Both the position numbers and the translations under genes were made by a program. Shown one piece after another: positions 10,164 through 64,000 of a stretch of 64,000 bases of DNA. The stretch lies in contig CBDCMT010000001.1 of the NCBI GenBank assembly GCA_965219095.1, positions 2,132,892-2,196,891 on the forward strand, written 5' to 3'. The first letter of the stretch is position 1. Each line of letters begins with the position of its first letter. The DNA comes from Bdellovibrionales bacterium. Lineage in GTDB: Bacteria > Bdellovibrionota > Bdellovibrionia > Bdellovibrionales > UBA1609. The notes under the pieces were generated by a model that had not been told where the DNA came from, did no database searches, and worked only from the letters and a program-made list of their open reading frames with translations.

Positions 10164-10213
10164 ATTCCTATAAATAGAAAAATAAAATAAACACGTCAAG
10201 CTTTCTTTAAAGC

Positions 10214-12175
10214 TTGAGTAAGTTTAAAAGATTAGGCATATTAAAGGGTGTGAAAAAAATCCCCCCTCTAGAGGGCCTGATCAAAAGACATCCTGATGGT
10301 TTTGGCTTCTTCATTCCTTTTGACAAGAAATTTCCTGATGCCTATATCACTAAACAGAAAATGAAAGGGCTTATGACAGGAGACAAGATCTTGGTTCAAA
10401 TGGTTCCTGAGAGAAAATATCCTAATAAATTTAGAGTTGTAAGTTTAAAGCTTCTTGAGAGACATTTTCAATTTGTCGTAGGCCGCGTATGCCAGCTTTT
10501 TGAAGACTTCTTCGTCCTCCCCGACATCTCACAGGCTTGGGGTTCAGAGCTTTACCTCCAAGTTCCAGGAAAGCTTTCAGTAAAAACCGGAGACTGGGTT
10601 TATGTCCAGGTGACACACTATCCTCCTCGCTTGAAAGGACGTGTTGTAGAAAAGCTAGGTTCTACAGAAGACCCTTTTATCGATAACAAAAGGGTCTTAC
10701 TAGAATATGGTTTAAAGCTTGAATTTTCTTCGGAAGCTCTTAGAGAGGCTGAAGAGATTTCGGAGGGTATAAAGCCTTCTTGCAAAAAAGGTAGAAAAGA
10801 TCTAACTCACCTAGGTTTTGTCACAATTGATGGACAACAAGCTAAAGATTTTGATGATGCGATTTTTGTGGATTCAAGCTCTCAAGGCTTGAACCTTTAT
10901 GTGGCAATTGCTGATGTAAGTTATTATGTAAAAACTCAGTCTGCATTAGATAAAGAAGCCTTTCAAAGAGCTAACTCAATTTACTTACCTAACTTTGTGA
11001 GTCCTATGCTACCTCCTAAACTTAGTGATAATGTTTGTTCTCTTAAGCCTTGTGTAAAAAGATTAACTTTTGTATGTGAAATGTCTTTTAACTTTCAAGG
11101 ACATTTAGCAAAGGAGCCTCAGTTTTACGAAGCTGTGATCAAAAGTCATCGTCGCTTCACTTATGCAGAAGTAGAAGACATTTTAGAAAGTAAGGATCCA
11201 TCAGAAACTATGATTCAAAAAGCAGGCCAATTAGCTAAAACACTTTTAAAAAACAGGAGAAAAAAAGGATTTTTGGATCTAAACATTCCAGAAACTATTA
11301 TTCCTGTAGATGATTCAGGTAAACCTCTTGATATTTTTTCATCACAGAGACTCTTTTCTCATCGTTTGATTGAAGAGTTTATGCTACAGGCCAATCAAGC
11401 TACAGCTAGAGTTATTGCCAAAAACTTAGTCCCTTGTCTTCACAGAGTTCATGAACTCCCAGAGAATAAGAAAATAAAGGAACTTAAGAGCTTTCTTGCA
11501 AGCCTCGGGATTTATAAAAAAATAAAAAACCAAAAAGCTCTCTCCGAGATCTCTAAAACATTTCAAAATTCCTTTCAAGGTGTTCTTATGAATCAATTGA
11601 TCTTAAGAGCTATGAATCAAGCACGTTACAGTTCCGATGTGTTGGTGGGGCATTATGCTCTTAACTTTACTCATTATACTCATTTTACATCTCCTATAAG
11701 ACGTTATGCAGATTTGGTTGTTCACAGAGTTTTAAAAAACTTCCTTAAAATCAAAAAACATAAAAAATATAGTAAAGAAGAAATGGAATCCATAGCTCAA
11801 AATGTGAGTACTTTAGAGCAAACAAGTACCAAAGTAGAAAGAAAGGTACAAGCTGTTAAAAAAGCTCGCTTTATGTCCCAATTTTTAGGAGAAGAATTTG
11901 ATGGCTTTATTAGTTCTGTGAATAAAAAAGGACTTTTTGTGAAGTTAAGAATTTACACTGTAGATGGATTTATCCCTATAGAGAATTTAAGAGAAAAAAG
12001 CATACAATTTGATTCAGAAAGAAGGCTTCTTTTTTCAAAAAAAACAGGGGTAAAATATATGATAGGAAAAGAAGTGAGAGTTTCTATAGCTTCTATTGAC
12101 TTAGATCAGGGTTATATTAACTTTTTTATGGCCTATAAAAGAGCGACTAAAAAGCGTAAAAAAACAAAATGTTAA
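10214..12175 (+). CDS. rnr: Ribonuclease R (RNB family, C-terminal S1 domain)
   Basis: HPDGFGF, TIDGQQAKDFDDAI, HYALNFTHYTHFTSPIRRYADL, S1 domain and basic tail. Confidence 0.92.
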   Translation: MSKFKRLGILKGVKKIPPLEGLIKRHPDGFGFFIPFDKKFPDAYITKQKMKGLMTGDKILVQMVPERKYPNKFRVVSLKLLERHFQFVVGRVCQLFEDFFVLPDISQAWGSELYLQVPGKLSVKTGDWVYVQVTHYPPRLKGRVVEKLGSTEDPFIDNKRVLLEYGLKLEFSSEALREAEEISEGIKPSCKKGRKDLTHLGFVTIDGQQAKDFDDAIFVDSSSQGLNLYVAIADVSYYVKTQSALDKEAFQRANSIYLPNFVSPMLPPKLSDNVCSLKPCVKRLTFVCEMSFNFQGHLAKEPQFYEAVIKSHRRFTYAEVEDILESKDPSETMIQKAGQLAKTLLKNRRKKGFLDLNIPETIIPVDDSGKPLDIFSSQRLFSHRLIEEFMLQANQATARVIAKNLVPCLHRVHELPENKKIKELKSFLASLGIYKKIKNQKALSEISKTFQNSFQGVLMNQLILRAMNQARYSSDVLVGHYALNFTHYTHFTSPIRRYADLVVHRVLKNFLKIKKHKKYSKEEMESIAQNVSTLEQTSTKVERKVQAVKKARFMSQFLGEEFDGFISSVNKKGLFVKLRIYTVDGFIPIENLREKSIQFDSERRLLFSKKTGVKYMIGKEVRVSIASIDLDQGYINFFMAYKRATKKRKKTKC

Positions 12176-45827: not shown

Positions 45828-46374
45828 AGAGAATTAAGAAGAAAGGCGGTCTTGTTTACTTTGCTGATTCCACACATCCTGAGTGGGGTCCTACGATTTC
45901 ATATGGTTGGATAGAAGTGAAGACCAATTCAGGCTGAAGAAAAAGAGTGAATGTTTGTGGAGCTATTGAGATCAATAGTTTGAAGACGGTAGTCAGGAGT
46001 CATAAGACAGTTAACCATGTTTCCATATGTGATATGCTCCATCATATTCATTAAGAAGTATTCCGATGAAAAAGAGATTCATCTTATCTTAGATGGGGCC
46101 GGATACAATAGATCGAAGTCTGTCAAGAAGTTAGTGAAAGAGTTGAATATAAAACTTGTTTATCTTCCTCCGTACTCACCGAATTTAAATCCTATAGAAA
46201 GGCTTTGGAAGTTTATGAAAAAAGAGGTCACGGCGAATCGATATTATGAAAACTATGACGATTTCAAGGGAAGTTTAAGTCAATTTTTTAGAGGAATACG
46301 AAAACACAGGCCTAAATTAGAAACTTTGATAACTTCTCCATCTTAGGAACCTGAAAACCTAAACGGAAGCACTA
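45828..46374 (+). mobile_element. IS630 type 2, 3' fragment
   Basis: YFADSTHP, LILDGAGYN, LPPYSPNLNP; right IR followed by TA inside IS982. Confidence 0.85.
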
Positions 46375-47259
46375 TATCATATCAATTTATGTTCTTGTCG
46401 ATGATTTTTTAACCCCTCTCATACAGCAGCACCCAGAACTGGTTCCCAAAAATAAAGGAGGTTTTTCTTGTGCTATGTCTCCCAGCGAAATTGTCACTCT
46501 TTATCTTACTTTTCCAAAGTTCTGGCTTTAGGAATTTTAAAGCCTTTTACCAGTTTGCAAAAGTCTATCTTAAATCTTATTTTCCTAAAATGTTGTCTTA
46601 CTCCCGATTTGTGAACATCAAAAAAGACATGGCTTTTTTGATGTTTCTTTTCTTGACAAGCCTTATGAGTAAAACCATCGGCATATCATTTATTGATTCC
46701 ACATCGATTGCTGTCTGCAAAAATAAAAGAATAGGACGAAATAAGGTGTTCTAAAAGTTAGCTAAAAAGAGGCAAAAGTAGTATGGGCTGGTTCTTCGGA
46801 TTTAAACTCCATATTGTTATCAATCACCTAGGAGAACTTTTAAGTTTTACCTTAACTCCGGGAAATGTAGATGATCGAAAGCTAAGTTATGGATTTATAG
46901 TAAAGGGTTGGTGGAAAAACTCTTTGGGGACAGAGGTTATATTTCATCAGACCTTTTCAAAAAGCTTTTAAAGAAGGGAGTTAAGCTTATTACAAACGTC
47001 AAATTAAATATGAAGAATAAATTGATTCCCTTATTTGACAAGTTGATGTTGAAAAAACGTTCTGTTGTGGAGGTCAGTGATTGGAGTGTTAAAAGGAGAG
47101 TTTCATCTTGAGCATTCTCGCCATCGTAGCCCACAAAACTTTGTCATCAATCTTTTAGGTACTCTCATCTCCTATTGCTTAAAACCTAAAAAACCCTCCA
47201 TTCAACTTAAAACTCAAAACAGGAGCTTCTGAACAATATATAAAAGTCGAAACTCGGGT
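46375..47259 (+). mobile_element. IS982-family element, copy 2 (left end lost)
   Basis: Near-identical to 5780-6664; ends gtcgaaactcgggt. Confidence 0.88.
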
Positions 47260-47777
47260 TATTACAAGTCAGCCGTATGGAAAAAAGCATCCTCATTAAG
47301 GTTAAAAACTTTCGTAGGTCCTTAAACTTTCATGAGTCCCTATCAAAAAAAGAAGATAAGTTATGTTTTTATACACTCTTCAAAGAAGGCTAGGAACCGA
47401 TCTCCTTTAGTATACAGGTTACAAAACTAGCCGGTTTTTCCGATCAAGTTATAGAAAAACAAAAAAATCTTTTCTTTTTTAAAAAAAACTCTAATTCATG
47501 AAAAAAAGTGCTACAACATAGCACAAAAAAGTCTTCAAATCCTTTTTAGTGTAAGAACACAATATTTTTAGAGGCTTTTGAGCATCTGAATCTCAAGTCA
47601 ACAACTCTCTTAGAAGCTTAATTGGCTTGGAAAACGGCAATGAAAACAAAAAAATAGTCACATGGTCTAGGTTTTTAGTATTTTTTTAAAATTCACTTGT
47701 ACTCTCTTATAAAGGCTGACAGACTTCTAAGTAAGGAAGTATTTTAAAAATAAACAATGAAACAGGGAGAGGCAAGG

Positions 47778-49092: not shown

Positions 49093-50985
49093 CCTGAGTT
49101 TGCCCTTTCATTAAAAAAACACCTTCAGATCGAAAACAATGCAGTTTCAGGTCTTTTTTCTTTAAGTTTATAATATGTCAGGTAATGTGCAATTATATAA
49201 CTTGGAGAAAAAAGAGGGAGGGATTTTTTATGTTCATGGCTTGTCCTAAAAGAAAAGATGGAAATATTGTGGTTAGGCTGATTGTATCCTATAGAAAGGA
49301 GGGTAAACCTAAATCCAAAATAGTTAAAACTATCGGTCAATCTAAAGATCCTAAAGCTGTAGAGCGGTATAAAAAGATAGCTAAAGAATTAATTGAAAAA
49401 GAAAAAAAGGGACTTGTTTCAATAGAGGGTGCTATTCGTAATAAGATTACAGTAAATCTTTCAGATGTAGACAATGAAGAGCGTCGTAATAATGGCTTTA
49501 ATGACATTCTAGGTTTTACTTACCAACAGTTGGGTTTTAATGATCTCATCCAAGCAGGAAGAGATCCTAAAAAGCTCAATGCTATTTTAAAGAATCTAGT
49601 TTTGATGAGAGTTTTTGATCCATCAAGTAAATTAAAAAGTTCCTATTTACTTGAGGAGCATTTTGGTAAAAATATAACTCTCAAACAAATTTTAAATTTG
49701 ATGGATCACATATCAGATCAGGAAGAAAACATTAGGGATAGAATTTCTCAAGTTATTCTTAATGGGGAAAAGAGCTTAGACATTGTCCTTTTTGATGTAA
49801 CGACCTTGGCCTTTGAAAGTGTTGTTCCCACGGACTTATTAGATTTTGGTTACAGCAAAGATGGTAAACCTGGAGAGGTTCAAGTTGTTTTAGCTGTTTT
49901 ATCGAATCAGAAGGGTTTGCCTATAAGTTATGAATTATTTGCTGGCAACACTTCAGAGTTTGAGACCTTTGAATCAATGATTAAGGGGGTTTCTAGGAAG
50001 TATAACCTTAGAAAGATAAGGGTTATAGCAGACCGAGGTTTGTTTTCCAATAGTAATCTTGAAGCTTTAGAGGGGTTAAATTCAGAGGGAATCAAGGCTG
50101 AGTACATTGTTTCTTGTCCCTTAAAAAAACTTCCTAAATCTCTTAAGGACAGTATTTTGAATAAGAGTAATTACAAAGATGATGGTACAGAAGGCTCTAA
50201 AATCTTATACCATGAGGTTGAGTATAATAACCGACGAATTATTATAAGTTACAGTGAGAAACGTGGGCGACATGATATAAAAAAAAGGGAACGTGCTGTA
50301 GAAAAGCTAAAGGAGTTAGAAAAAGATGGAAAGATTAAAAGTTCTAAGCTGATAAAAGGTGGAGGGAAAAATAAATATATACAAAAAGTTCGTGGGGACA
50401 CAAAGATTGATTGGAAAAAAGTGGAGCAAGACGCCTTGTGGGATGGTCTATATGGAGTTTGTACAAATTTAAAATCAGAGTCTGTTCATGCCATTTGTGA
50501 GGCCCGCTACAATCTTTGGCGAATTGAAGAGCTGTTTCGGATTAACAAACATAATTTAAAAATGCGACCCATATATCATAGAAAAACTCAAAGAATAAGA
50601 TCACACATAGCTATTTGTTTTTTAGCTTATGTGGTTCTGAGAAGTACAGAAATAACTTTAAAAGAAGCAGGGGTGAATATTAGCTCCCAAGAGCTTATTG
50701 AGACTCTTAAGGATGTAGAAACTAATATTATTCGAAATAGAGTAAAAGTTCCCTCTAAAGCTTATGGCCTTCCTCGTAAGTTATCTGCAAAGGCTAAGAA
50801 AATTTATAAGCTCTTTGGAAAGGAGTTTCCTGAAAGAGCCTATGAAATAACATAATTGTGAATATTTATTGGAGAGCTTTTGGTATGTAGAAAAATGTAG
50901 TATGTCTTTTTCATTGGAACAGTGCATAAACCTAGTTATTTCAGGTACTTAAAGTAATAGCTAAATTTGAAAGGGCAAACTCAGG
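49093..50985 (+). mobile_element. IS1634-family element B
   Basis: Perfect 18-bp IR cctgagtttgccctttca / tgaaagggcaaactcagg; no TSD visible; preceded by an IS5 end (gggcgtgtcctcatt, 49047). Confidence 0.75.
49230..50855 (+). CDS. IS1634-family transposase, open frame
   Basis: LFDVTTLAFES, GYSKDGK, IADRG, LWRIEELFRINK, MRPIYH..RIRSHIAICF. Confidence 0.9.
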   Translation: MFMACPKRKDGNIVVRLIVSYRKEGKPKSKIVKTIGQSKDPKAVERYKKIAKELIEKEKKGLVSIEGAIRNKITVNLSDVDNEERRNNGFNDILGFTYQQLGFNDLIQAGRDPKKLNAILKNLVLMRVFDPSSKLKSSYLLEEHFGKNITLKQILNLMDHISDQEENIRDRISQVILNGEKSLDIVLFDVTTLAFESVVPTDLLDFGYSKDGKPGEVQVVLAVLSNQKGLPISYELFAGNTSEFETFESMIKGVSRKYNLRKIRVIADRGLFSNSNLEALEGLNSEGIKAEYIVSCPLKKLPKSLKDSILNKSNYKDDGTEGSKILYHEVEYNNRRIIISYSEKRGRHDIKKRERAVEKLKELEKDGKIKSSKLIKGGGKNKYIQKVRGDTKIDWKKVEQDALWDGLYGVCTNLKSESVHAICEARYNLWRIEELFRINKHNLKMRPIYHRKTQRIRSHIAICFLAYVVLRSTEITLKEAGVNISSQELIETLKDVETNIIRNRVKVPSKAYGLPRKLSAKAKKIYKLFGKEFPERAYEIT

Positions 50986-51869
50986 AATAACTGATCTTTA
51001 AGCTGTGGGCTAGAGTAATGAGAGTTGGTAGTTACGCCTTTTTGAATATCTGATGTAGTCTCATGCTTTTTTTTTAGAAATTGATTTAAGTCTTTTTGTG
51101 TTTTTATGACAGCATTTTCAGGTATCTTTGTATGATCTGGTATGTTTAACTCATTTCCGATAAAACAAAATTTTCCTATTTTTACGTTTTCTCCCACTTT
51201 AGTATTTTTTCCAATTATAGCTTGATAACCAATGAGGGAGTTTTTTTTAACATGAACTCCTGCATAGATTTGGGCTCTTTGTTGTATGAAGCAGTGATTT
51301 TCAATATGAACCCCAGGCCCTAAGCCAGCAAAACCTCCTATGAGAACATAATCCCCAATGGTTATAGGATAAGTCATAAGAGTTTTTGTTTTAGGAAATA
51401 GGGTTGTGGCAAGAATAGCATCTTCTCCAATAAGGCTTTCTTTTCCAATAGAGACAAAATAAGGCTCAAAAATTTTTACACTGGATGTAATCCATGAACT
51501 AGGGTGGATTTTAGCTTGAAAGGTGCGTAAAATAAGAAAACGGATAGGATCTGAAATAAAAAAAAGTTTTTGGAAGAATAAAGCATAAACTCCGTAAAGA
51601 TTTCTTTTCAAACCCCATTGAAGCATAAGAAGAGAATTGAAATTATCATATTCTCCTGGAGAAGGTTTTTTAATAAGATAATTTAAAACCCCATAAAAGG
51701 CCAGTAAGAAAAAAGGAGACATAACAAAAGCTAAAGGCACAGCCCACAGGAGGTTTTCGGAAAAGAGCATAAGAGATAAATAGAAAGGTAGCCAGAGTAC
51801 CAGGAAGGTAAGAAATAAAAGAACTAGGAATAGGCTTACACATAAAAATGACACACAAAGATCATACAC
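50961..51869 (-). CDS. Membrane-anchored left-handed beta-helix acyltransferase-like protein, copy 1 (C-terminus supplied by the IS1634 IR)
   Basis: Two N-terminal TMs; PGEY..W..LRTFQAKI..VSIGKESLIGEDAIL..ITIGDYVLIG hexapeptide repeats; last codons LSLPFQI* come from the IR. Confidence 0.75.
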   Translation of the reverse strand: MYDLCVSFLCVSLFLVLLFLTFLVLWLPFYLSLMLFSENLLWAVPLAFVMSPFFLLAFYGVLNYLIKKPSPGEYDNFNSLLMLQWGLKRNLYGVYALFFQKLFFISDPIRFLILRTFQAKIHPSSWITSSVKIFEPYFVSIGKESLIGEDAILATTLFPKTKTLMTYPITIGDYVLIGGFAGLGPGVHIENHCFIQQRAQIYAGVHVKKNSLIGYQAIIGKNTKVGENVKIGKFCFIGNELNIPDHTKIPENAVIKTQKDLNQFLKKKHETTSDIQKGVTTNSHYSSPQLKDQLFLSLPFQI

Positions 51870-51945
51870 AAGGATTTTTTATATTGTATAGATTTTTTTT
51901 TATTGACTTATAGGCAGTCCTTTTTTAGACTTACGCACAATACCT

Positions 51946-54045
51946 ATGTCTAGTTTAGAAGAAAATCCCTTACTCATACCCTCAAACCTGAAAAAAGGTG
52001 CTGTGCGTTTTGATAAGATTAAAGCAGAACACTTTATGCCTGCCCTTGAGCAGTTGTGCAAGGAGGCTCAAGTAAAATTTTTAAAAATTATGGAACATAA
52101 AAAAAAGCCCAGCTATGAAAACACCATTAAACCTTACGACCAAATTATTCACTCTTTTGATATAATTTCTGGAGTTTTCTATCAACTGTACGCAGCTGCT
52201 AATTCTTCTGAACTTTCTGAAATCATGCTTTCTTTCACTTCAGGTCTACAAAAAATGTTCCTTACAATAAAGAATCCTCAGTTTTTTAAAAGGGTAGAGG
52301 CTATTTATAAAGATGAAATGGAAAGAAACTCCTTAAACCATGAAGAACTTCGCTATTTAGATTTACTCTATGAGAGATTAGCTTTCGAAGGAGCTCTGCT
52401 TTCAGAAGAAAGCTGTAAAAAACTTATGGATACAAACGATGAAATAGAACTTTTAGGCAAGAAGTTTTTTCAAAACATAATTGAGTTTCGAGAAAGGTTT
52501 CGGTTTCAGGTAACTGATAAAGAAGCTCTAGAAGGCATTCCTGAAGGCTATGTTTTAGAAGCTAAAAGATTAGCAGAAAAGGAAAAAGAAGAAGGCTGGA
52601 TTTTTACTTCTTTAGAGACAAGCTATTTACCTTTTCTAGCTTATTGCAAAAGAAGAGAGCTAAGAGAAAAGTTTTTTAAAATTATGTCCTTCCGAAACTA
52701 TAATGGTGAACTTGACAATTCTGAAATTGTACTCAAAATCATTGATTTGAGATTAAAAAAAGCTAAGCTTTTAGGTTTTTCAAATTACTCTGAATATAAG
52801 CTCAGAGAAAGTATGGCAAAATCCCCTCATAACGTGACTTCATTTTTGGAAAATCTATTAAAAGTTTTTCGTCCTAAAGCTTTAAAAGAACTCAAAGAGG
52901 TGAAAGACTTAGCTTTAAAAGAAGATGGCATTGAAGATTTTCAGTATTGGGATTTAGACTATTATTCAGAAAAACTAATGAAAAAGAAATTTGATATGAA
53001 CACTCAAGAACTAGGAAAACTAAGAGAGTACTTCCCTTTAGAGAAGAGCTTAAAGGGGCTTTTTGAACATGCTAAGAGGCTCTATGATTTAGAATTCAAA
53101 AAAACGAAAAACTATCCTGTCTACGAAGAAACTGTGAAAGTTTATGAAGTTTATCGTAAAGGTGATTATAGAGGGCTTCTTTATTTGGATTTATTCTCAA
53201 GAAATAAAAAATCACAAGGAGCTTGGGCGATTCGCTTTAAACCACAAGGAAGTGATTTTTTAGGAACGAGAAGTTTTTGTCATGCTGTGATTTGCTGTAA
53301 TTTTTCCAAACCTAATAAGGATAAACCTAGTCTTCTTACATTAGATGATGTGCGAATTCTTTTTCATGAGTTTGGTCATGCTCTTCATAATATTTTGTCT
53401 GATTGCAAAATGAGTTCTCTTTCAGGCAGTTCTGTTTTTATAGATTTTATAGAACTTCCTTCTCAAATTATGGAAAACTGGATTTATGAAAAAGAAAGCT
53501 TACAGCTTATCTCAGAACATTATGAAACAGCAAAACCCTTGCCTGATGATTTGTTCGAAAAAGTTAAAGGTCAATTACAGTTTCAATCCGGTATATATTG
53601 TTTAAGGGAACTTTCTTTGGGACTTCTAGATATGGCTTGGCATAATCTTTCTGATTTACCCGATATTTCACTTTTAGAATTTGAAGCTAAAGCAACAAAA
53701 AAAGCTCAGTTATTAGCTCCTTTAGAAAAATCTTTTTTTCCCCTCCATTCCCCCCATTTCTTTTATATATTTTCTGGAGGCCATGATTCAGCATACTACG
53801 GCTATAAATGGGCTGAAGTTTTAGGTGCAGATGCTTATAAAATGTTTCAAGAAGAGGGGATTTTCAACAAGGAAGTGGCTGAAAGGTTTAGAGATTCTAT
53901 TTTAAGTCGAGGCAATACAGAAGATCCTTTAACTCTTTATAAAAGATTTAGAAAAAGAGAGCCTGATATAAGTGCTTTTTTAGAAAGAAAAAGTTTAGTT
54001 TTAGAAAAAAAGCCTCTTAAAAAAGTTTCTGAAAAGACAAATTAG
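51946..54045 (+). CDS. M3-family metallopeptidase (oligopeptidase A / Dcp-like), copy 1
   Basis: LFHEFGHALH (HExxH), DFIELPSQIMENW, KQGAW-like SQGAW, YYGYKWAEVL, FRKREPD. Confidence 0.92.
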   Translation: MSSLEENPLLIPSNLKKGAVRFDKIKAEHFMPALEQLCKEAQVKFLKIMEHKKKPSYENTIKPYDQIIHSFDIISGVFYQLYAAANSSELSEIMLSFTSGLQKMFLTIKNPQFFKRVEAIYKDEMERNSLNHEELRYLDLLYERLAFEGALLSEESCKKLMDTNDEIELLGKKFFQNIIEFRERFRFQVTDKEALEGIPEGYVLEAKRLAEKEKEEGWIFTSLETSYLPFLAYCKRRELREKFFKIMSFRNYNGELDNSEIVLKIIDLRLKKAKLLGFSNYSEYKLRESMAKSPHNVTSFLENLLKVFRPKALKELKEVKDLALKEDGIEDFQYWDLDYYSEKLMKKKFDMNTQELGKLREYFPLEKSLKGLFEHAKRLYDLEFKKTKNYPVYEETVKVYEVYRKGDYRGLLYLDLFSRNKKSQGAWAIRFKPQGSDFLGTRSFCHAVICCNFSKPNKDKPSLLTLDDVRILFHEFGHALHNILSDCKMSSLSGSSVFIDFIELPSQIMENWIYEKESLQLISEHYETAKPLPDDLFEKVKGQLQFQSGIYCLRELSLGLLDMAWHNLSDLPDISLLEFEAKATKKAQLLAPLEKSFFPLHSPHFFYIFSGGHDSAYYGYKWAEVLGADAYKMFQEEGIFNKEVAERFRDSILSRGNTEDPLTLYKRFRKREPDISAFLERKSLVLEKKPLKKVSEKTN

Positions 54046-54095
54046 TTGCAACATAACTGACTTTTTCCATATAATAACCCGAGTTTCGACTTTTA
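54046..54095 (-). repeat. Orphan 3' tip of the SH3/beta-barrel gene plus an IS982 terminal repeat
   Basis: 54046-54076 is the reverse complement of 61203-61233; acccgagtttcgactttta at 54077. Confidence 0.8.
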
Positions 54096-55233
54096 TAGTG
54101 CTTCCGCTTAGGTTTTCAGTTTCCTAAGATAGAGAAGTTATCAGTTATCAAAGTTTCTAATTTAGATCTGTGTTTTCGTATTCCTCTAAAAAATTGACTT
54201 AAACTTCCCTTGAAATCGTCATAGTTTTCATAATATCGATTCGCCGTGACCTCTTTTTTCATAAACTTCCAAAGCCTTTCTATAGGATTTAAATTCGGTG
54301 AGTACGGAGGAAGATAAACAAGTTTTATATTCAACTCTTTCGCTAACTTCTTGACAGACTTCGATCTATTGTATCCGGCCCCATCTAAGATAAGATGAAT
54401 CTCTTTTTCATCGGAATACTTCTTAATGAATATGATAGAGCATATCACATATGGAAACATGGTTAACTGTCTTATAACTCCTGACTACCTTCTTCAAACT
54501 ATTGATCTCAATAGCTCCACAAACATTCACTCTTTTTCTCCAGCCTGAATTGGTCTTCACTTCAAACTTCTTACCCTCTCTTATCCAACCATATGAAATC
54601 GTAGGGCCCCACTTAGGATGTGTGGAATCAGCAAAGTAAACAGGACCGTCTTTCTTCTTAATTCTCTTGTATTTACGCACAAACTTTTCCTGCTCTTCTT
54701 TCTTTACCTTACCCGGTATTGCTGTGGCTTTTTTATAAGAAAAACCAAGGCGATGGAGAAGATCAATTACACCACTTGTTGAGTACGTAACACCAAAATT
54801 CTCCTCAATGAACTGAATAACGGTCTGTGATGATGGAAAAATTCTTTTCTCTAATTCCTTTAAAAGCATTTTCTCCTCTTTCGTTAGTTAAAAAGGACCT
54901 TTTAGGGTTGTAATTGTCGTTGATTAAGCACTCTATCCCGCCTTTGTTATAACGATCTCTACAGGCTCTTATCGTGCCCTCATCAAGGAAAAGAAAACGG
55001 GAAATATCTTTACACAACTCACCTTTATCTAAATGGAGAATTGTCATAATCCTTTTTCCGTACCTAAGATTTCTTTCTAAAGATAGTTCATAGAGTAAAT
55101 CTTTTCGCTCTTTTTTTGATAGAAACCCTGACATATGAAACTATTTTTAAAAATAAATGACTTTTTATCAAGGCCTTAGAATAAAAACTAGACCTCAACT
55201 CAAAAAAAACGGAAAACCTAAGCGGAAGCACTA
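54096..55233 (-). mobile_element. IS630-family element type 2, full length but frameshifted
   Basis: IRs tagtgcttccgcttagg / cctaagcggaagcacta; TA flanks; ORF pieces 54805-55134, 54423-54869, 54116-54460. Confidence 0.9.
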
Positions 55234-56322
55234 TATACCTTCTCTGAAGAGTTTCGTACTCTTTTTGAGTCAGAACTCTTGACTCTTTTTTATGAACTAA
55301 CTCCACAGTCTCTTTAAGAAGTTTTTTGAGATTTGTAGCCCATTTGAATCCATTGCTTTCTTCTATAAATTTAAGCTCTCTCAAAAGGTGAGCCACACAC
55401 AAAGCATGAGTTATCTTATCATAACAAAAGTAAGGACTCCAACAATCATGCACAAGCACTCCTCCATATCTATCCAAGAGACCAATATCTTTTATGGCTT
55501 CCCTTCCACCTGAAAGGTGGAGAAACTGCAAGACTAATTCTCCTGAACTATAAGTATGAATCCAGTAGTTTTTACCCTTAACCCTCATAGAGGTCTCATC
55601 AACATGAATGACCTCTGATTCAAGTATCTTTTCTTTCATCTGCTCTTCCCAACTTTTAAGAAACTCTCCTAATTCAGCAATGTATCTCAACATAACTGCA
55701 GGAGAAATCATTCGACCTATAAGCCCCATGTAATGTTCCCCAACACGTTGAAAAGACAGCATCTGAACTATAATGAAATTGATGATGGAAGCTCTAATGC
55801 CTATACCATACTGAAGAGGACCACTCATACCTTTAGGGAATTGACCTTTATTTCTAGCTCCACATGAGGGACAATCCTTAACCTCAGAAGTTACAGTATG
55901 GGTCTGAATTTCATAAAAAATATGGCTCCTCCCGGGAACCCACAGATTCTTTTGAGGAGGCAAAAATATCAATCTTTTTACGCTTCTCAAGGCTTTTTAC
56001 CTCTGCTGTCTTTAAAAACATCCCACACTGAGAACACTCTGAGGGAGAGACAGTCTCCTCACTGTTTGTATCTTTACTGTTATCAAGTCTAGAGCCCTTT
56101 TTTTGACTCCCACTAGCTTTCTTATTACGATTTCCTTGACGACTAAAATCTTGCGAAGGAGGAAGACCGCTGTTGCTGGAATTTTTTCGAACCTGTTTTT
56201 CTAAAAACACAACAATCAGAATGTTCACAACCTTAAAGAGAGATTCAACAATCACAGAAATCTCAGTAGGCACAGAACCTTTCTTTGCAAACTTATCAAA
56301 GTCACTTCTTATATTTTCAATT
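55234..56322 (-). pseudogene. ISBst12-like IS66 copy 3; both ends lost, interrupted by the 38-bp element
   Basis: Reverse complement of ~40243-41283 with an insertion at 55924-55961. Confidence 0.9.
55924..55961. mobile_element. 38-bp hairpin mini-MITE with 8-bp target-site duplication
   Basis: ggctcctcccgggaacccacagattcttttgaggaggc flanked by aaaaatat at 55916-55923 and 55962-55969; the empty site is present in IS66 copies 1 and 2. Confidence 0.9.
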
Positions 56323-56430
56323 CTTTTGCCTCTAGTTTTTAGTTGAAGGAGTTATACACAGGTTTTAGGTTGTTTCTGTGGCCCCGGCCCATTTTACAAG
56401 TTTGCAAAAGTTGTTTAGCCTTTTTAAAGA

Positions 56431-58203
56431 ATGTTTGTAAAAGTAACATCAAAGTCTAAGGGTAAAAAAAGTGTACGGATTGTAGAGTCTGTTTGGCTTA
56501 AGGGGAAGTGTGTACAAAAGACCATTCGTTCTATGGGTATTTTTGCAAACGATAAGGAAGTTAAAAAAGCTAAGAAGTTAGCAGAAGAGTTGATCATAGA
56601 CATTAAGAATCAAAGAAATCCTGTGCTTCCAGGTTGTGAGAAGCTAGTTTATGGTAGAAGGCCTAAGGAGAAGAAGAAAGAGAAGAAAAAAAAGAGTGAG
56701 AAAGATTTCCAGTTTTCAGGCAGTATTTTAGAGGAGAAAAAGCGTGTTGTTTGTGGTATTGAGAAAGTTTTTAATGAGCTTTATGCTGAGTTAGGTTTTG
56801 TAAATTTGATTGAGGGTACAAAGAAAGATTTAGAGTGGAATGATATTTTAAAGCACTGTGTTTTATCAAGAGTTTTTAATCCAGAATCAAAAAGAGGTAG
56901 TGTAGAAACACTTTTTGAAGATTTTAACCGACAGATTCCTTTAGAGAAAGTTTATAGGGCTATGGATCGTTTTTATCCTTTTATTGAGACCTCGAAGAAA
57001 AAGGTATCTGAGAACACCTTATCTTTGTTTAACAATGAGGTGGATGTTTTGCTTTATGATGTGACGACCTTGTATTTTGAGAGCTTCTCAGAGGATGAGA
57101 TCGCAGGTTTGGTTTTAGTAAAGATTGTAAATTTAAAGAGACACAGGTTGTTTTGGCACTTATGACAAACTCACAAGGGCATCCTATAAGCTATGAACTT
57201 TTTCCGGGCAATACAAGTGAGGGGGCTACACTGGTAGAATCTATAAATAAGCTAAAGACTCGTTTTAATGTAAGAAGAGCTGTTTTAGTAGCTGATAGAG
57301 CTATGTTTGTAAGAAAGAATTTAGAGACTATGGATAAGATGGGGATAGAGTATGTTGTGGCTGCAAAGTTAAAATCCCTTTCTAGCAAGAAAAAAGAAGA
57401 GGTTTTAAGTTATAAAAACTATAAGCCCACCCAAGTGGCTTGTGATACGTCTCATCTTTTTTGGGTGAAAGAGCTAGAGCATGAAGGAAAAAGATTGATA
57501 GTCAGTTATTCAAACAAAAGAGCCAAAAGAGATCAAAATCAAAGAGAGCGTTTGATCAATCGTTTGATGAAGAAAGTAAGAAACAAGGAGATTCCTGTGA
57601 GTCAGTTGATCTCCAATCATGGAACCAAACGTTTTATTAAAGTTGACGATGTGAAAGTGACCATAGATGAGGAGAAAATGGAAAAAGAAGCTTTGTGGGA
57701 CGGTCTTCATGGAATTATAACAAATGTTCAAAACAAGACAGCCAGTGAGCTTTTAAGTCGTTACAGAAGTCTGTGGAGAATAGAAGAGGCTTTTAGAGTG
57801 AATAAGACGACGTTAAAAATGAGGCCTGTTTATCATTGGAAAAAAAGAAGAATAGAAACTCACATTGCCATTTGTTTTTTAGCCTATGCGATCTCTTACA
57901 CAATGGTTTATAAACTCAAACAAGCAGGACTTAATTTAAGCTTTGAAAGAATGAGAAAGATCTTAAAAAGAGATCAGTACAGTATTTTAGAAGAAAAAAA
58001 GACGAAAAAACTTTATCGCCTTCCCTCAGGTTGTACAAAGGAAGTAGAAGAAATTTATAGTGCTTTTTCGCTTAAAAGAAACTCTTCTATGAGCCTCATT
58101 CCCACAACATCTGTCGACCTTTAAAAAACCCTTTCCTGTGGCCCCAAAAATTGTAACTATTTGAAATTATTCACTTGTTGCAGTGTGTTGTGTCGAAGTC
58201 AGG
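56431..58203 (+). mobile_element. IS1634-family element C; transposase split by a frameshift (56431-57165 / 57153-58124)
   Basis: LYDVTTLYFES, VADRAMF, LWRIEEAFRVNK, MRPVYHW; right end gtgtcgaagtcagg. Confidence 0.88.
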
Positions 58204-58610
58204 AGAATATTCGTGACCGTATGCAAAAAAAATTTTTTATATTTTTTGTAAATGGAGAAGTGTTTTTTCTTGACATACTTTTTGATAGACATTTTTATGT
58301 TCAAATTTAAAATTTTAAAATTGACTTAAGGAAAAGCTTCAGTTAGGAGATTTTAAAAAAACTTCTTTTGAGGGGAGGTTTAAGTTTTCATAGACGTTTC
58401 TTGAATCGATTTTCCTTCTTGCATATGATGCAAAGCCAATAGTTTTATCTTGATGTTGGCACTTCTTTCTACTTTGTAAGTAGCCAGAAAATCATACCCT
58501 TGAAGCTTTGTAACTAAATCTTTAAACACTCTAAAAATTTAACAGAGTTTGATTAAAAAGCCAGGGCGCTATGTGTTAAAAGAATGTCGAATTAATTTTT
58601 GGAAATGGTA
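58204..58610 (-). mobile_element. 88-bp repeat plus internally deleted, diverged IS630 type-1 derivative
   Basis: Tail segment and 5' segment of IS630-1 joined near 58393; ends gaaatggta followed by TA. Confidence 0.8.
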
Positions 58611-58612
58611 TA

Positions 58613-59518
58613 AGAAAGATGATCGACTTAAAATTAATAAAATTGCGAACAATTTTAAGCTTAAAATAGAAATAAATAATAAAATAAACAATATTTTTGA
58701 ATCTTTAGCACAAACAATTTTCAAATCTTGGTTTGTTGATTTCGACCCCGTCTATGCCAAAAAGCTGGCATTCGACTCTGGTTTGTCAAAAAAACAAGCT
58801 GAACGTGTAGCTATAGCTATTATCTCTGGGATTTGTAACCCTAAAAAGTTTGTTGAAGATTTCAAGAAAATGGATCATCTTTTATCTCAAAAGCTATCAA
58901 AAATGAACAAGAAAAAACAAAAAGAACTAGCTTATATGGCTTCTTTATTTCCAGGTGAGTTTGAAGATAGTGATTTAGGAGAGATTCCCAAAGGGTTTAA
59001 TGTTTGCAGGATAGATCAAATACTCGAATTAGCCTATGGGAAATCTTTAAAAAAATCAAATCGTGTAGAAGGATCTTATCCTGTTTATAATTCAGAAGGA
59101 CGCAGTGGTGTTCATAATGTTTATTCTGTTAAGGGGCCTGGAATTATTTTGGGAAGAAAAGGAACTACTGATAGCCTGTATTGGGAGGATAATAATTTCT
59201 TTCCTGTAGATACTACTTTTTTTATAAAACTTAGAAAATCATATAAACTTACTTTTATTTTTTATCTTATGCAAACTTTAGGGCTAGAAAAGATGAATAC
59301 AAATGCCTTAACTTTAAATTTTAATAGAAACAATGTCTACAAACTTAAGTTTGTAGAGTTTCCTAGAGAAATAAGAATTGTATTATGAAAACTTAGTTGC
59401 TTCCATAAGAAATTTTATGTTTAATAATTTAAAAGAGGTTGAGGAAATAGAGAAGTTAAGAGACACACTTCTTCCGAGATTACTGGAAGGTAAGATAGGT
59501 TTATCAGACATACAGTGA
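58613..59518 (+). pseudogene. hsdS: Type I restriction-modification specificity subunit, 3' half
   Basis: KIEINNKIN..LAQTIFKSWFVDFDP..LFPGEFEDSDLGEIPKGF, TRD2 (AYGKSL..GRKGT); after a frameshift EIEKLRDTLLPRLLEG; 5' half removed at the IS630 end. Confidence 0.88.
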
Positions 59519-59749
59519 TTAGTGATTGTAAGTTAAAAATTTATACGATTGACCAATAGAGAAAAGGATAAGCTTTAAGAGACAACACTCAATCGTTTTA
59601 ATAAATTGTTATTCTAGAAGGCGTTAGAAAAGGGGGCTTTAGAAATTAACAGAACAGACATAAATGCCTATGATACATAGCAACGAATGAAGCTTCTTTG
59701 CAATTCTATAGTAGACTAAAAGCAGTGTAAGTAAAAAGGAGGACAGATT

Positions 59750-60379
59750 ATGGTAAAGCAACATCTAGAAAAAATAAAACAAATAACTAAACATCAGTTT
59801 TTAGGACAAAGGCATTTAGATAAATTCTTAAAAACAAGACTTCAAAAATTCGATAAGACGCTACATAAAGTAGCTTTGCCCTTTTTAGAAAATCTTGCGG
59901 ATTTTCTTCTATCTCTTAAAGATAGAGAAGACCAACCTATATTTGTTATAGTGAAAAAACTTAAAAACTTTCAAGGGGAACTTCCTAAATACGAAACACA
60001 AGGATCTAGCGGTCTTGATGTAAGAGCACAACTTGTAGAAGACATTTATCTTGAACCCCATGACAGAGTTTTGATTCCCACATGCCTTTGTGTAGAAATC
60101 CCTAAAAATTACGAATTACAAATCCGCCCTCGTAGTGGCTTGTCTTTTAAAGAAGGTTTAGGTGTGATCAACAGTCCTGGCACAATTGATTCTGACTATA
60201 GAGGGGAGATTAAAATCATTCTTATGAACTATTCAAATCATAAGATAACCATCACAAACCAACAAAGAATAGCTCAGTTTGTTTTATGTCCTGTGAAAAA
60301 GTTAGAATGGATTGAAGCTTATCATTTAAAAACCACTCAAAGAGGGGGTGGAGGATTTGGTAGTACAGGGAAGAATTAA
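59750..60379 (+). CDS. dut: dUTP diphosphatase with a ~65-aa N-terminal extension
   Basis: GSSGLDV, IRPRSG, NSPGTIDSDYRGEI, RIAQ, RGGGGFGSTG; strong SD aaggagg before the upstream ATG. Confidence 0.92.
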   Translation: MVKQHLEKIKQITKHQFLGQRHLDKFLKTRLQKFDKTLHKVALPFLENLADFLLSLKDREDQPIFVIVKKLKNFQGELPKYETQGSSGLDVRAQLVEDIYLEPHDRVLIPTCLCVEIPKNYELQIRPRSGLSFKEGLGVINSPGTIDSDYRGEIKIILMNYSNHKITITNQQRIAQFVLCPVKKLEWIEAYHLKTTQRGGGGFGSTGKN

Positions 60380-61262
60380 TCTTTTTATCTTTTTGGCGTT
60401 TTTTTATTTTCCTTTGACAGGCACTTCAGAAAAAAGACTTTCTTCTACGAGAATTCAATGGGCTTTAGTAAGTGTAGAAAAAGCTACTGTTTACAAATAT
60501 GCTAATTTTGATTCCCCTGTGATTCATCATTTTAAATATAGCGAAAAAATTCTTATTACAATGAAACTTTATAAAGGAGTGGGAGGGTTTGGTACATTTT
60601 ATAAAACAAAGCTTAAAAATAAAAAAATAGGTTATATTACTGATATTGAAGTCATCCCACAATACATCAGAGTAGGAGATCATTTAAGACCTAATAAAGA
60701 ATTTCAAGAGTTTGGACTCAGAGAGAGGACAAAACATTTGGAGGATATTTACTTAAGTCGATATTTAGGTGTCTCTAGTAGCTGGGTGGGTTTAACAGAA
60801 AAATGGGGAAAAAAGTCATTTACAAAGTTTGTTTCTTTCTTTGGTTTTAGATTAACAGGGCCTAAATTTATTTCAGAACAATTCCCTTGGGATTTAGAAG
60901 TTTTGATCAATCCTTTTTTGCCAAGCTACTATAAAGATATTCCCTTGAAAGACATTCAAACTGTAATAGATCATTCGGGGTTTCACCTTCAATCTTCACT
61001 GGTTTTTAATATACCTCTTTCTCAAACCATTTTTCGCCTCATATATGCCGGCTTAGGACCTTGTTTTTTCTTTAGAAACATAGGGCTTGAAACCTCTAAA
61101 AACAAATCTTATCATCTTAAACATCTTCGTCTAGGTATGGTTCTACAGTTTGGTCTAGCCTACCGCCTTTCTGAAAATTACCTTATACGTGTGGAGGGAC
61201 GCTATTATATGGAAAAAGTCAGTTATGTTGCAACTAATTTGTCTTTTCAGAAACTTTTTTAA
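60348..61262 (+). CDS. SH3-domain protein with probable C-terminal outer-membrane beta-barrel
   Basis: ATVYKYANFDSPVI..GTFYKTKL..KIGYITDIEV (bacterial SH3-like); alternating beta strands ending in Phe; start codon uncertain. Confidence 0.6.
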   Translation: MEDLVVQGRINLFIFLAFFYFPLTGTSEKRLSSTRIQWALVSVEKATVYKYANFDSPVIHHFKYSEKILITMKLYKGVGGFGTFYKTKLKNKKIGYITDIEVIPQYIRVGDHLRPNKEFQEFGLRERTKHLEDIYLSRYLGVSSSWVGLTEKWGKKSFTKFVSFFGFRLTGPKFISEQFPWDLEVLINPFLPSYYKDIPLKDIQTVIDHSGFHLQSSLVFNIPLSQTIFRLIYAGLGPCFFFRNIGLETSKNKSYHLKHLRLGMVLQFGLAYRLSENYLIRVEGRYYMEKVSYVATNLSFQKLF

Positions 61263-63321
61263 GAGGCTTTTTTTCTAAAACTAAACCTTCTCTTTCTAAA
61301 AGAGCCCTTATATCAGGCTCTCTTTTTCTAAATCTTTTATAAAGAGTTAAAGGATCTTCTGTATTGCCTCGGCTTAAAATAGAATCTCTAAACCTTTCAG
61401 CCACTTCCTTGTTGAAAATCCCCTCTTCTTGAAATATTTTATAAGCATCTGCATCTAAAACTTCAGCCCATTTATAGCCGTAGTATCCTGAATCATAGCC
61501 CCCAGAAAATATATGAGCGAAATGGCAGGAAGAAGAAGATTTTTTCAAAGGAGCTAATAACTGAGCTTTTTTTGTTGCTTTAGCTTCAAAATCTTCTAAA
61601 AGTGAAATATCAGGTAAATCAGAAAGGTTATGCCAAGCCATATCTAGGAACCCGAAAGAAAGTTGCCTTAAACAACGTATACCGGATTGAAACTGTAATT
61701 GACCTTTAATTTTTGCAAACAAATCATCAGGCAAGGGTTTTGCTGTTTCATAATGTTCTGAGATAAGCTGTAAGCTTTCTTTTTCGTAAATCCAGTTTTC
61801 CATAATTTGAGAAGGAAGTTCTACAAAATCTATAAAAACAGCAGTGCCTGAAAGAGAACTCATTTTGCAATCAGACAAAATATCATGGAGGGCATGACCA
61901 AACTCATGAAAAAGGGTTCGCACATCATTTTGTGTAAGAAGACTAGGTTTACTCTTACTAGGTTTTGGAAAATTACAGCAAATCAGGGCATGACAAAAAC
62001 TTCTCGTTCCTAAAAAATCACTTCCTTGTGGCTTAAAGCGAGTCTTCCAAGCTCCTTGTGATTTTGTATCTCTTGAAAATAAATCCAAATAAAGAAGCCC
62101 TCTATAATCACCTTTACGATAAACTTCATAAACTTTCACAGTTTCTTCGTAGACAGGATAGTTTTTCGTTTTTTTGAATTCTAAATCATAAAGTCTCTTA
62201 GCATGTTCAAAAAGACCCTCTAAGCTCTTCTCTAAGGGGAAGTACTCTCTTAGTTTTTGAGTGTCTATATCAAATTTCTTTTTCATCAGTTTGTCTGAAT
62301 AATAGTTTAAATCCCAATACTGAAAATCTTCAATGCCATCTTCTTTTAAAGCTAAGTCCTTTACCTCTTTGAGTTCTTTTAAAGCTTTAGGACGGTAGGC
62401 TTTTAGTAGATTCTCCAAAAATGAGATCACTTTATGAGGAGATTTTGCCATACTTTTTTTGAGCTTATACTCAGAGTAATTTGAAAAACCTAAAAGCTTA
62501 GCTTTTTTTAATCTCAAATCAATGATTTTGAGTACAATTTCAGAATTGTCAAATTCATCCTTATAATTTCGACAGGATATAAGTTTAAAAAACTTTTTTC
62601 TTAGATCTCTTCTTTTGCAATAATATAGAAAAGGCACATAGCTTGCTCTTAAAGAAGTAAAAGCCCAACCTTCTTTTTTTTCCTTTTCTGCTAATTTTTT
62701 AGCTTCTAAAACACAGTCTTCAGGCAAGCCTTCTAGGGCTTTTTTATCAGTTAAATAAAAACGAAAACTTTCCTGAAACTTAATTAAGTTTTGAGAAAAC
62801 TGGTTGCCTAAAAGTTCTATTTCCTCGTCTGTATCCATAAGTTTTTTACGATTTTCTTCTGAAAGCAGAGTTCCCTCGAGAACTAATCTCTCATAGAGTA
62901 AATCTAAGTAGCGAAGCTCTTCATGGTTTAAGGAGTTCCTTTCCATCTCATTTTTATAAACAGTTTCTATTTTTCTAAAAAACTGGGGATTCTTGTTCAT
63001 CGCAGAGAAGGTTTTTTCCAAAAGAGGGCTGAAGGTTAGCATGGTTTCAGAAAGATCAGAAGAGTGAACAGCTGAGTGCAATTGATAGGAAACACTAACA
63101 ATTGTATCAAAAGAATGGAAGATCTGATTGTAAGGTTTAATGGTGTTTTCATAATTAGGCTGTTTTTCGTGTTCTATAATTTTTGCAAATTTTACTTGAG
63201 CCTCCTTGCACAACTGCTCAAGGGCAGGCATAAAGTGTTCTGCTTTAATCTTATCAAAACGCACAGCACCTTTTTTCAGGTTTGAGGGTATGAGTAAGGG
63301 ATTTTCTTCTAAACTAGACAT
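61234..63321 (-). CDS. M3-family metallopeptidase, copy 2 (native context)
   Basis: LFHEFGHALH, DFVELPSQIMENW, HIFSGGYDSGYYGYKWAEVLDADA. Confidence 0.92.
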   Translation of the reverse strand: MSSLEENPLLIPSNLKKGAVRFDKIKAEHFMPALEQLCKEAQVKFAKIIEHEKQPNYENTIKPYNQIFHSFDTIVSVSYQLHSAVHSSDLSETMLTFSPLLEKTFSAMNKNPQFFRKIETVYKNEMERNSLNHEELRYLDLLYERLVLEGTLLSEENRKKLMDTDEEIELLGNQFSQNLIKFQESFRFYLTDKKALEGLPEDCVLEAKKLAEKEKKEGWAFTSLRASYVPFLYYCKRRDLRKKFFKLISCRNYKDEFDNSEIVLKIIDLRLKKAKLLGFSNYSEYKLKKSMAKSPHKVISFLENLLKAYRPKALKELKEVKDLALKEDGIEDFQYWDLNYYSDKLMKKKFDIDTQKLREYFPLEKSLEGLFEHAKRLYDLEFKKTKNYPVYEETVKVYEVYRKGDYRGLLYLDLFSRDTKSQGAWKTRFKPQGSDFLGTRSFCHALICCNFPKPSKSKPSLLTQNDVRTLFHEFGHALHDILSDCKMSSLSGTAVFIDFVELPSQIMENWIYEKESLQLISEHYETAKPLPDDLFAKIKGQLQFQSGIRCLRQLSFGFLDMAWHNLSDLPDISLLEDFEAKATKKAQLLAPLKKSSSSCHFAHIFSGGYDSGYYGYKWAEVLDADAYKIFQEEGIFNKEVAERFRDSILSRGNTEDPLTLYKRFRKREPDIRALLEREGLVLEKKPLKKVSEKTN

Positions 63322-63397
63322 AGGTATTGTGCGTAAGTCTAAAAAAGGACTGCCTATAAGTCAATAAAAAAAAATCTATACAATATAAAAAATCCTT

Positions 63398-64000
63398 GTG
63401 TATGATCTTTGTGTGTCATTTTTATGTGTAAGCCTATTCCTAGTTCTTTTATTTCTTACCTTCCTGGTACTCTGGCTACCTTTCTATTTATCTCTTATGC
63501 TCTTTTCCGAAAACCTCCTGTGGGCTGTGCCTTTAGCTTTTGTTATGTCTCCTTTTTTCTTACTGGCCTTTTATGGGGTTTTAAATTATCTTATTAAAAA
63601 ACCTTCTCCAGGAGAATATGATAATTTCAATTCTCTTCTTATGCTTCAATGGGGTTTGAAAAGAAATCTTTACGGAGTTTATGCTTTATTCTTCCAAAAA
63701 CTTTTTTTTATTTCAGATCCTATCCGTTTTCTTATTTTACGCACCTTTCAAGCTAAAATCCACCCTAGTTCATGGATTACATCCAGTGTAAAAATTTTTG
63801 AGCCTTATTTTGTCTCTATTGGAAAAGAAAGCCTTATTGGAGAAGATGCTATTCTTGCCACAACCCTATTTCCTAAAACAAAAACTCTTATGACTTATCC
63901 TATAACCATTGGGGATTATGTTCTCATAGGAGGTTTTGCTGGCTTAGGGCCTGGGGTTCATATTGAAAATCACTGCTTCATACAACAAAGAGCCCAAATC
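63398..64000 (+). CDS. Membrane LbH acyltransferase-like protein, copy 2 (runs off the window)
   Basis: Reverse complement of 51267-51869; no differences seen in the segments compared. Confidence 0.8.
   Translation, partial: MYDLCVSFLCVSLFLVLLFLTFLVLWLPFYLSLMLFSENLLWAVPLAFVMSPFFLLAFYGVLNYLIKKPSPGEYDNFNSLLMLQWGLKRNLYGVYALFFQKLFFISDPIRFLILRTFQAKIHPSSWITSSVKIFEPYFVSIGKESLIGEDAILATTLFPKTKTLMTYPITIGDYVLIGGFAGLGPGVHIENHCFIQQRAQI

Follow-up and report, generated by a model that had tools for sequence, protein, structure and literature searches.

The stretch of DNA analysed here (the window) comprises 64,000 nucleotides, C2:2132892-2196891, of a Bdellovibrionales bacterium whose 3.11-Mb genome consists of two contigs (C1 and C2) with 34% G+C. 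Towards the right-hand end of the window lie two ~3.1-kb inverted repeats, which share 93.0% BLAST identity across 3,099 columns and are separated by 7,126 bp. Each repeat unit holds the gene of a hexapeptide-repeat acyltransferase, a 76-bp divergent intergenic region and, on the opposite strand, the gene of an M3 metallopeptidase. In window numbering, the two copies and their genes are:

50985-54076, + strand: repeat copy 1, 3,092 bp by whole-genome comparison, the derived and relocated copy
50961-51869, - strand: acyl1, predicted membrane-anchored hexapeptide-repeat (left-handed beta-helix, LbH) acyltransferase of 302 amino acids (aa), Pfam Hexapep, E 4.5e-18
51946-54045, + strand: pep1, M3 metallopeptidase, 699 aa, PF01432 with 402 bits, altered active-site loop YIFSGGHDSAYY
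61203-64282 (genome C2:2194094-2197173), - strand: repeat copy 2, the ancestral locus, overshooting the window end by 282 bp
61234-63321, - strand: pep2, M3 metallopeptidase, 695 aa, PF01432 with 432 bits, canonical active-site loop HIFSGGYDSGYYGY
63398-64000 within the window, + strand: acyl2, with its native stop codon at ~64285, past the window end

In an inverted-repeat search, four collinear arm pairs jointly link 51267-54076 with 61203-64000. Together with the whole-genome BLAST comparison they bear out the inverted copies that the original prediction, made from the sequence of this stretch, had placed at 50986-54076 and from 61203 to beyond 64000; the boundaries of both copies are sharp to a single base at either end.

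Both peptidases match PF01432 over its full length (profile positions 1-455/457, gathering cut-off 27 bits), and they are the only two M3 genes of the genome; further M3 paralogs, for which a search had been proposed, did not turn up. Overall, pep1 and pep2 share 83% protein identity with dS (synonymous differences per synonymous site) of 0.18, dN (the non-synonymous counterpart) of 0.082 and omega (dN/dS) of 0.45. The zinc site H474, E475, H478 and E503 (pep1 numbering) shows no variation across the alignment and is intact in pep1 and pep2; the sequence comparison likewise agrees with the prediction in the retention of HEFGH and ELPSQ and in the C-terminal strings quoted for the two proteins. 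With respect to classification, the full-length PF01432 match, HEFGH with a downstream Glu, the length of ~680-700 aa and the lack of a signal peptide resemble the M3A subfamily, i.e. E. coli Dcp (PDB 1Y79), oligopeptidase A, thimet oligopeptidase and neurolysin; Dcp is the best solved relative (E 1e-115 for pep2), although the identity to solved enzymes is low. As the scores are far under the NCBIfam equivalog cut-offs, for OpdA (NF008159) 445 bits for pep1 and 478 for pep2 against 927, and for Dcp (NF007624) 419 and 458 bits against 944, the two proteins can be named only M3A-like, with neither OpdA nor Dcp assignable from sequence. We also observed 13 positions at which pep1 and pep2 carry the same deviation from a residue that 23 distant M3 homologs keep without exception; shared departures at columns with at least 95% conservation include H281Y, R289S, P418S, P445C and W499I. 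Hence, the M3 enzyme of this lineage had become unusual before the duplication took place.

The acyltransferases acyl1 and acyl2 are the same apart from the C-terminal tail of acyl1, which is derived from an insertion sequence (IS): acyl1 ends in DQLFLSLPFQI and acyl2 in DQLF. Weak similarity to WcaF, LpxD and Pls/PosA-type models was found for acyl1, with every score under the model cut-off. A third acyltransferase paralog of the genome (C2:937595-938368) is 31% identical, and no match to the LbH acyltransferase was obtained at E<=1e-10 among 30 GTDB relatives at family and order level. Promoter-like hexamers face both genes in the shared intergenic region.

The divergence between the two copies is not uniform along the unit but falls into three strata with two breakpoints (copy 1 coordinates; dS and dN by the Nei-Gojobori method, with stratum C taken as 52360-54042):

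50985-52080, no strand: stratum A, acyltransferase, 76-bp intergenic region and peptidase codons 1-45; 0 of 1,096 bp differ
52081-52359, + strand: stratum B, codons 46-138, 279 bp; 77.5% nucleotide identity, dS 0.73, dN 0.19, omega 0.26
52360-54076, + strand: stratum C, codons 139-699 and a 31-bp tail; 92.0% identity, dS 0.135, dN 0.072, omega 0.53

At the nucleotide level this corresponds to differences of 0 in A, 22% in B (62/276) and 8% in C (133/1,668). The first difference between pep1 and pep2 is located at codon 46 (52081) and is followed by synonymous and non-synonymous changes, while the last 83 bp of the repeat (53994-54076) are again identical and take in the 31 bp that follow the pep1 stop, the 3' tip of a convergent 304-aa gene. 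Thus, the identity of the acyltransferase, the intergenic region, the first ~45 codons and the 31-bp tip, as well as the heavy divergence from 52081 onwards, had been read correctly from the sequence. Among codons with the same residue in pep1 and pep2, synonymous differences were counted in 0 of 43 (codons 1-45), 14 of 58 (codons 46-138) and 29 of 463 (codon 139 onward), with a change point at codon 139 (permutation p=0.001). Past this codon no further heterogeneity was detected (max-chi-square permutation p=0.48, longest run p=0.94, window counts under-dispersed). A fine mosaic inside the peptidase interior is ruled out by this homogeneity, and the interspersed identical patches described by the original prediction do not exceed chance beyond codon 139, since a uniform divergence of ~8% (~6% synonymous difference) in a constrained gene looks patchy by chance.

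In search of a donor or a closer relative, a collection of 5.8 billion proteins was searched with the whole of pep1, its N-terminal 200 aa and the acyltransferase. These searches yielded two metagenomic relatives only, here called L013 and L017. L013 (38% G+C) has 58-62% protein identity to both copies over the C-terminal 450 aa, and L017 (33.8% G+C) has 54-70% protein identity and ~71% DNA identity; no relative above ~70% DNA identity was found in the databases searched. The M3 genes of the 30 GTDB relatives reach at most 44% identity, and the M3 gene of this genome is closest to those of Bdellovibrio-like bacteria. Using L017 as outgroup in a three-way DNA alignment, Jukes-Cantor distances between the copies and from the copies to L017 were 0.000 and 0.383 in stratum A, 0.263 and 0.464 in B, and 0.083 and 0.354 in C. 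The resulting ratios of 0, 0.57 and 0.24 rule out local rate variation as the cause of the B and C strata, and their discordance requires at least two recombination events. Relative to the outgroup, changes in stratum B are divided evenly between the copies (27:28 nucleotides, 9:9 residues). Its G+C at third codon positions is 0.28 compared with 0.38, a value from 93 codons that is too noisy for marking a foreign segment.

The gene order in the two relatives bears on the question which copy is the original. Two neighbours of copy 2 are relevant here:

60348-61262, + strand: 304-aa conserved hypothetical gene, convergent with pep2; its last 60 bp lie within the repeat
59750-60379, + strand: dUTPase, 209 aa, PF00692, an ancestral neighbour of the M3 locus

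In L017 the order is acyltransferase(-), M3(+), a hypothetical gene termed hyp300(-) and dUTPase(-), with protein identities of 69% for the acyltransferase, 73% for hyp300, the counterpart of the 304-aa gene, and 74% for the dUTPase. L013 shows M32, M3(+), the convergent hyp308(-), dUTPase(-), M16 and PNPase, and the 304-aa gene is 57% identical to the gene at the same position. The surroundings of copy 2 (dUTPase, 304-aa gene, pep2, acyl2) match the order of both relatives. This shared order shows that acyltransferase, M3, hyp300 and dUTPase represent the ancestral arrangement and that copy 2 is the original locus; the pairing of acyltransferase and M3 gene is older than the duplication. For the 304-aa gene, which had been labelled as an SH3 gene, no Pfam family was found even at E up to 5, and the label finds no support there. 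In both relatives, frameshifts break up the M3 gene, in L013 into two pieces (7312-9353) and in L017 into three (10001-12060). As the name of the L017 contig indicates 3x coverage, these are probably sequencing errors rather than signs of pseudogenes.

Copy 1, on the other hand, lies among IS elements:

49100-50984, + strand: IS1634-family element, intact; transposase reading frame 49185-50855, 556 aa, NCBIfam NF033559, E 4e-92
54072-54093, no strand: IS982-family terminal fragment, 22 nt, at the inner junction of copy 1
54094-55235, - strand: IS630-family element with 29-bp terminal inverted repeats, transposase split over three frames, ~57-68 genomic copies
55236-58613, no strand: pile of IS remnants in the spacer, with IS66 family, a split IS1634-family element and IS630 ends

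The right end of the IS1634 element adjoins copy 1 and supplies the last seven codons and the stop of acyl1; other genomic copies of this element terminate at 50986. At the inner junction, 54072-54097 (54094-54097 included) forms a perfect 26-nt inverted repeat with an IS982 end at 47239-47264. The latter belongs to a degenerate IS982 at 46373-47264 with fragments of its reading frame at 46470-47232, and 23 copies end at 47264. Neither flank of copy 1 carries on the native flanks of copy 2. Profile matches and the mapping of copy ends therefore agree with the bracketing of copy 1 by IS1634 and IS982/IS630 that had been proposed, and base-exact IS ends together with the synteny of copy 2 with L017 and L013 support copy 1 as the derived, IS-bounded duplicate. 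As copy 1 is delimited precisely by IS termini, of IS1634 on one side and of IS982 on the other, we conclude that an IS-associated rearrangement made or trimmed it. A composite transposon is ruled out: the flanks come from different IS families, one of them being a 22-nt stub, and a matching functional IS pair is lacking. The locus rather resembles the IS-bounded segmental duplications of IS-expanded, host-restricted or recently bottlenecked genomes, with which it shares the IS termini of copy 1, a repeat content of 43% of the genome and many low-copy duplications. Besides this pair, ~30 low-copy repeats longer than 1.2 kb are present, and together with the high repeat content they suggest that duplications of this sort are commonplace in this genome. 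The IS982-end pair encloses 6.8 kb with a LuxR-type helix-turn-helix gene, a YciA-like thioesterase gene, the IS1634 element and copy 1; its right-hand partner is a stub, cut by the IS630 insertion.

Within stratum C the two peptidases have evolved at different rates. When polarised by L017, 38 residues are derived in pep1 and 17 in pep2 (p=0.0065), and for nucleotides the numbers are 62 and 39 (p=0.028); the more distant L013 gives 28 and 12 (p=0.017). An alignment with 23 distant homologs has 126 invariant columns in stratum C; ten of them are broken by pep1 alone (T471I, V502I, Q555E, F558L, H607Y, Y613H, G616A, D627G, L678F and G683S) and one by pep2 (p=0.012). With synonymous changes split equally, branch omega is ~0.76 for pep1 and ~0.33 for pep2, and the protein-level rate of pep1 since the stratum C split is ~2.2x that of pep2.

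Several of these changes fall into the active-site loop. The consensus of the substrate-binding loop is H-I-F-x-G-G-Y-x-x-G-Y-Y-x-Y; pep2 conforms to it, while pep1 departs from it and reads YIFSGGHDSAYYGY. The pattern H....GGY is present in 118 of 119 homologs with the motif, and the exchanged form Y....GGH occurs in pep1 only. In an alignment with E. coli Dcp (1Y79), the pep2 residues H603 and Y609 fall on Dcp H601 and Y607. Human neurolysin binds the substrate backbone around the scissile bond through hydrogen bonds from His601, Tyr606 and Tyr613 (PMC11310207). Of these, His601 and Tyr606 correspond to the two loop positions; we infer that the histidines are equivalent across the one-residue difference in loop length between the bacterial and mammalian enzymes. 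Both peptidases retain their zinc ligands and the final Tyr of the YYGY motif. The Dcp alignment, the invariant columns and the motif count in homologs thus substantiate the differences that had been noted near the C-terminal substrate-contact region. In the nucleotide alignment, the loop differences are point substitutions and a 9-nt indel. A compensated frameshift is ruled out, as no alternative frame matches.

In simulations with 60-114 random substitutions on stratum C, with indels ignored, a stop-free frame was left in 0.1-5% of the runs. Since an open frame is that improbable under drift and pep1 shares its promoter region with pep2 unchanged, we think with moderate confidence that pep1 is probably no dead gene but is still made and under some selection, with a specificity that has weakened or shifted. 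The rate asymmetry would best be read as relaxed or altered selection on pep1. If pep1 is active, it offers a natural experiment on how the loop sets the specificity of M3 enzymes. The exchange of His and Tyr, seen in no other homolog examined, is the single feature of biochemical interest at this locus.

Taken together, the following history would account for these observations. A 3.1-kb piece of the ancestral locus, with the acyltransferase, the divergent M3 gene and the tip of the 304-aa gene, would have been duplicated in inverted orientation ~7 kb away, an IS-associated rearrangement having made or trimmed the new copy. Very recent homogenisation would then have affected the outer 1,096 bp, for which RecA-dependent gene conversion between the inverted copies is the simplest mechanism. 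Codons 139-699 may trace back to a last common ancestor at dS ~0.135. Codons 46-138, five times older (dS ~0.73), could be the final stretch of an older duplication that escaped conversion, or else a short patch acquired from a diverged relative. After the stratum C split, pep2 would have kept the family-invariant residues while pep1 sped up. The putative conversion tract stops at the onset of the 22% divergence, where mismatches would be expected to halt heteroduplex extension. Consistent with gene conversion, the tract without a single difference in 1,096 bp directly adjoins a segment that differs by 22%, the segments remain discordant after normalisation, the other copy is the only other M3/acyltransferase locus of this type and could have served as donor, and recA is present in the genome (464 bits). 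We consider this history as a whole, with the duplication, at least two later recombination or conversion events and the faster evolution of pep1, to be probable, though well short of certain.

Some points weigh against it. At 0.26, omega is lower in stratum B than in the neighbouring part of C (0.99; Fisher p=0.025), which would fit working orthologs diverging in separate lineages and leans slightly towards a foreign patch for B. Two sequences and outgroups at ~70% DNA identity do not allow the direction and the number of conversion events to be inferred. The argument from the intact reading frame of pep1 ignores that stops may have been repaired by conversion and uses a simple mutation model. 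Finally, the analysis takes the assembly to be correct and the 1.1-kb tract to be truly identical, and the expression of pep1 and pep2 is presumed from their sequences.

The same pattern could in principle have arisen by a very recent IS-mobilised duplication, followed by homologous recombination in which DNA of another strain or paralog took the place of the whole peptidase interior (~52081-53990) in one copy. The diverged interior indeed lies between identical sequences (1,096 bp 5' and 83 bp 3' of it), and stratum B is ortholog-like in its omega of 0.26 and its symmetry to the outgroup. One import is insufficient, however, for two divergence classes that remain ~2.4-fold apart after normalisation, and the excess of changes in stratum C lies on the pep1 branch at ten family-invariant positions, which is unexpected for a working single-copy allele. 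Given the unchanged flank of 1,096 bp, these changes are also too many to postdate an import, the genome holds no third M3 gene, and none of the 5.8 billion database proteins is a candidate donor. We therefore regard a replacement of the entire interior as quite unlikely. Of the earlier proposal that the interior was replaced or patched from elsewhere, the recombination stands, with at least two events, while the whole-interior import fails on the pep1-branch excess and the invariant positions hit. A foreign patch is possible only for the 279-bp stratum B. The excess on the pep1 branch in stratum C is what relaxed or altered selection on a resident paralog would produce, and homogenisation of the flank is the simpler reading. 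An artefact of the assembly, with copy 1 as the allele of a second strain threaded between IS copies or with the 1.1-kb identity produced by repeat collapse or polishing, appears very improbable. Both ends of copy 1 are IS ends, where assemblers can mis-join, and the assembly leaves unresolved an 8.6-kb overlap of the C2 end with an internal stretch of C1. Against this, the genome is in two contigs only with an estimated contamination of 0.56%, IS copies were kept distinct at 94-99% identity, so that repeats are not generally collapsed, and neither the rate asymmetry of pep1 nor its loss of invariant residues would be expected for alleles of a single-copy gene.

For the state of pep1, decay is a serious rival, even if we doubt it: as a redundant duplicate on its way to a pseudogene, pep1 would carry loop changes that are mere damage, and its frame would be open by luck or by conversion repair. 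Its branch omega of ~0.76, the ten invariant residues lost and the lower HMM (hidden Markov model) scores compared with pep2 (Pfam 402 against 432 bits, OpdA model 445 against 478) fit this, and widespread pseudogenisation would be plausible in a genome with 43% repeats. It is opposed by the open frame of 699 codons, which has a probability of 0.1-5% under neutral substitution even before indels, by the retained zinc ligands (HEFGH and E503) and last Tyr of YYGY, by the reciprocal nature of the exchange, which leaves one His and one Tyr in the loop, and by the promoter region shared with pep2. At the other extreme, pep1 may be a neofunctionalised M3 peptidase in which the His/Tyr exchange, a 3-residue insertion and other alterations of the substrate-clamping loop would create a new cleavage specificity. 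Selection would then protect the interior while conversion homogenises the promoter, the N-terminus and the acyltransferase, and the A/B boundary would mark the limit of tolerated conversion; this is a tentative idea which we consider unlikely. Least credible of all is a programmed invertible or cassette system, similar to shufflons or hsdS, that switches peptidase variants via the inverted repeats. The long inverted repeats, including the perfectly identical 1.1-kb segment, and the presence of recA would suit such a system, and since recA is present a RecA-mediated inversion of the interior is mechanistically plausible. However, a search of the reading frames of at least 60 aa in 54077-61202 and the flanks tested, i.e. 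in or beside the 7.1-kb interior, revealed neither a tyrosine or serine recombinase nor an integrase or resolvase domain; the spacer frames of this size are transposase remnants, an hsdS remnant, the dUTPase, the 304-aa gene and a 120-aa frame (55911-56273, in the IS66-family element) without a family match. Both copies are moreover complete with the same promoter, so that a crossover in the identical part alters the orientation only, and chimeras would need a crossover in stratum B or C. Only two copies exist, and ~30 similar low-copy repeats occur elsewhere in the genome. The "cassette-like" diversification of the original prediction hence does not hold: there are two M3 genes, no site-specific recombinase was found, and recombination in the identical part yields no new combination of genes.

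The preferred history, duplication followed by partial conversion, has a parallel in the tufA/tufB genes of Salmonella and E. coli, between which interlocus gene conversion has reportedly been described (Abdulkarim and Hughes 1996; reviewed by Santoyo and Romero 2005). Two inverted copies per chromosome and long identical tracts beside diverged sequence are common to both cases, and RecA-dependent recombination is the obvious mechanism. They differ in that the tuf copies are functionally equivalent and near-identical throughout, whereas here the outer third has been homogenised and one copy is diverging at its active site; at the M3 locus, conversion is proposed from the sequence pattern. A literature search for bacterial gene conversion between inverted repeats retrieved nothing specific. 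All in all, the locus represents ordinary paralog evolution of an M3A-like pair with probable interlocus gene conversion, i.e. known kinds of process. It is a clean, small example of an IS-associated segmental duplication combined with partial homogenisation and asymmetric paralog divergence in an IS-overloaded genome, and apart from the loop of pep1 it reflects ordinary genome dynamics and no new kind of system.

Several further observations concern the neighbouring dUTPase and the genome. The 209-aa dUTPase (59750-60379) aligns from residue 1 with a 209-aa gene of L017 (12995-13624) at 74% identity, and L013 has a 226-aa version (10265-10945). The N-terminal extension thus appears to be conserved in the lineage and not to result from a mis-called start. 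Other low-copy repeats of the genome are perfectly identical as well, namely a 1.5-kb inverted pair (C2:70661-72160 and 74020-75519) and a tandem array with a period of ~2.5 kb (C2:442100-449571), which indicates that recent duplication or homogenisation is not restricted to the M3 locus. The final 8.6 kb of contig C2 (2388495-2397094) are 99.99% identical, in reversed orientation, to the internal segment C1:220448-229047, which reflects an assembly join left unresolved or, alternatively, a large duplication of very recent date. Finally, 72 bp past the outer end of copy 2 lies a 235-bp non-coding repeat (64355-64590 in window numbering, C2:2197246-2197481), which has ~83 copies in the genome and appears to resemble a miniature inverted-repeat transposable element.

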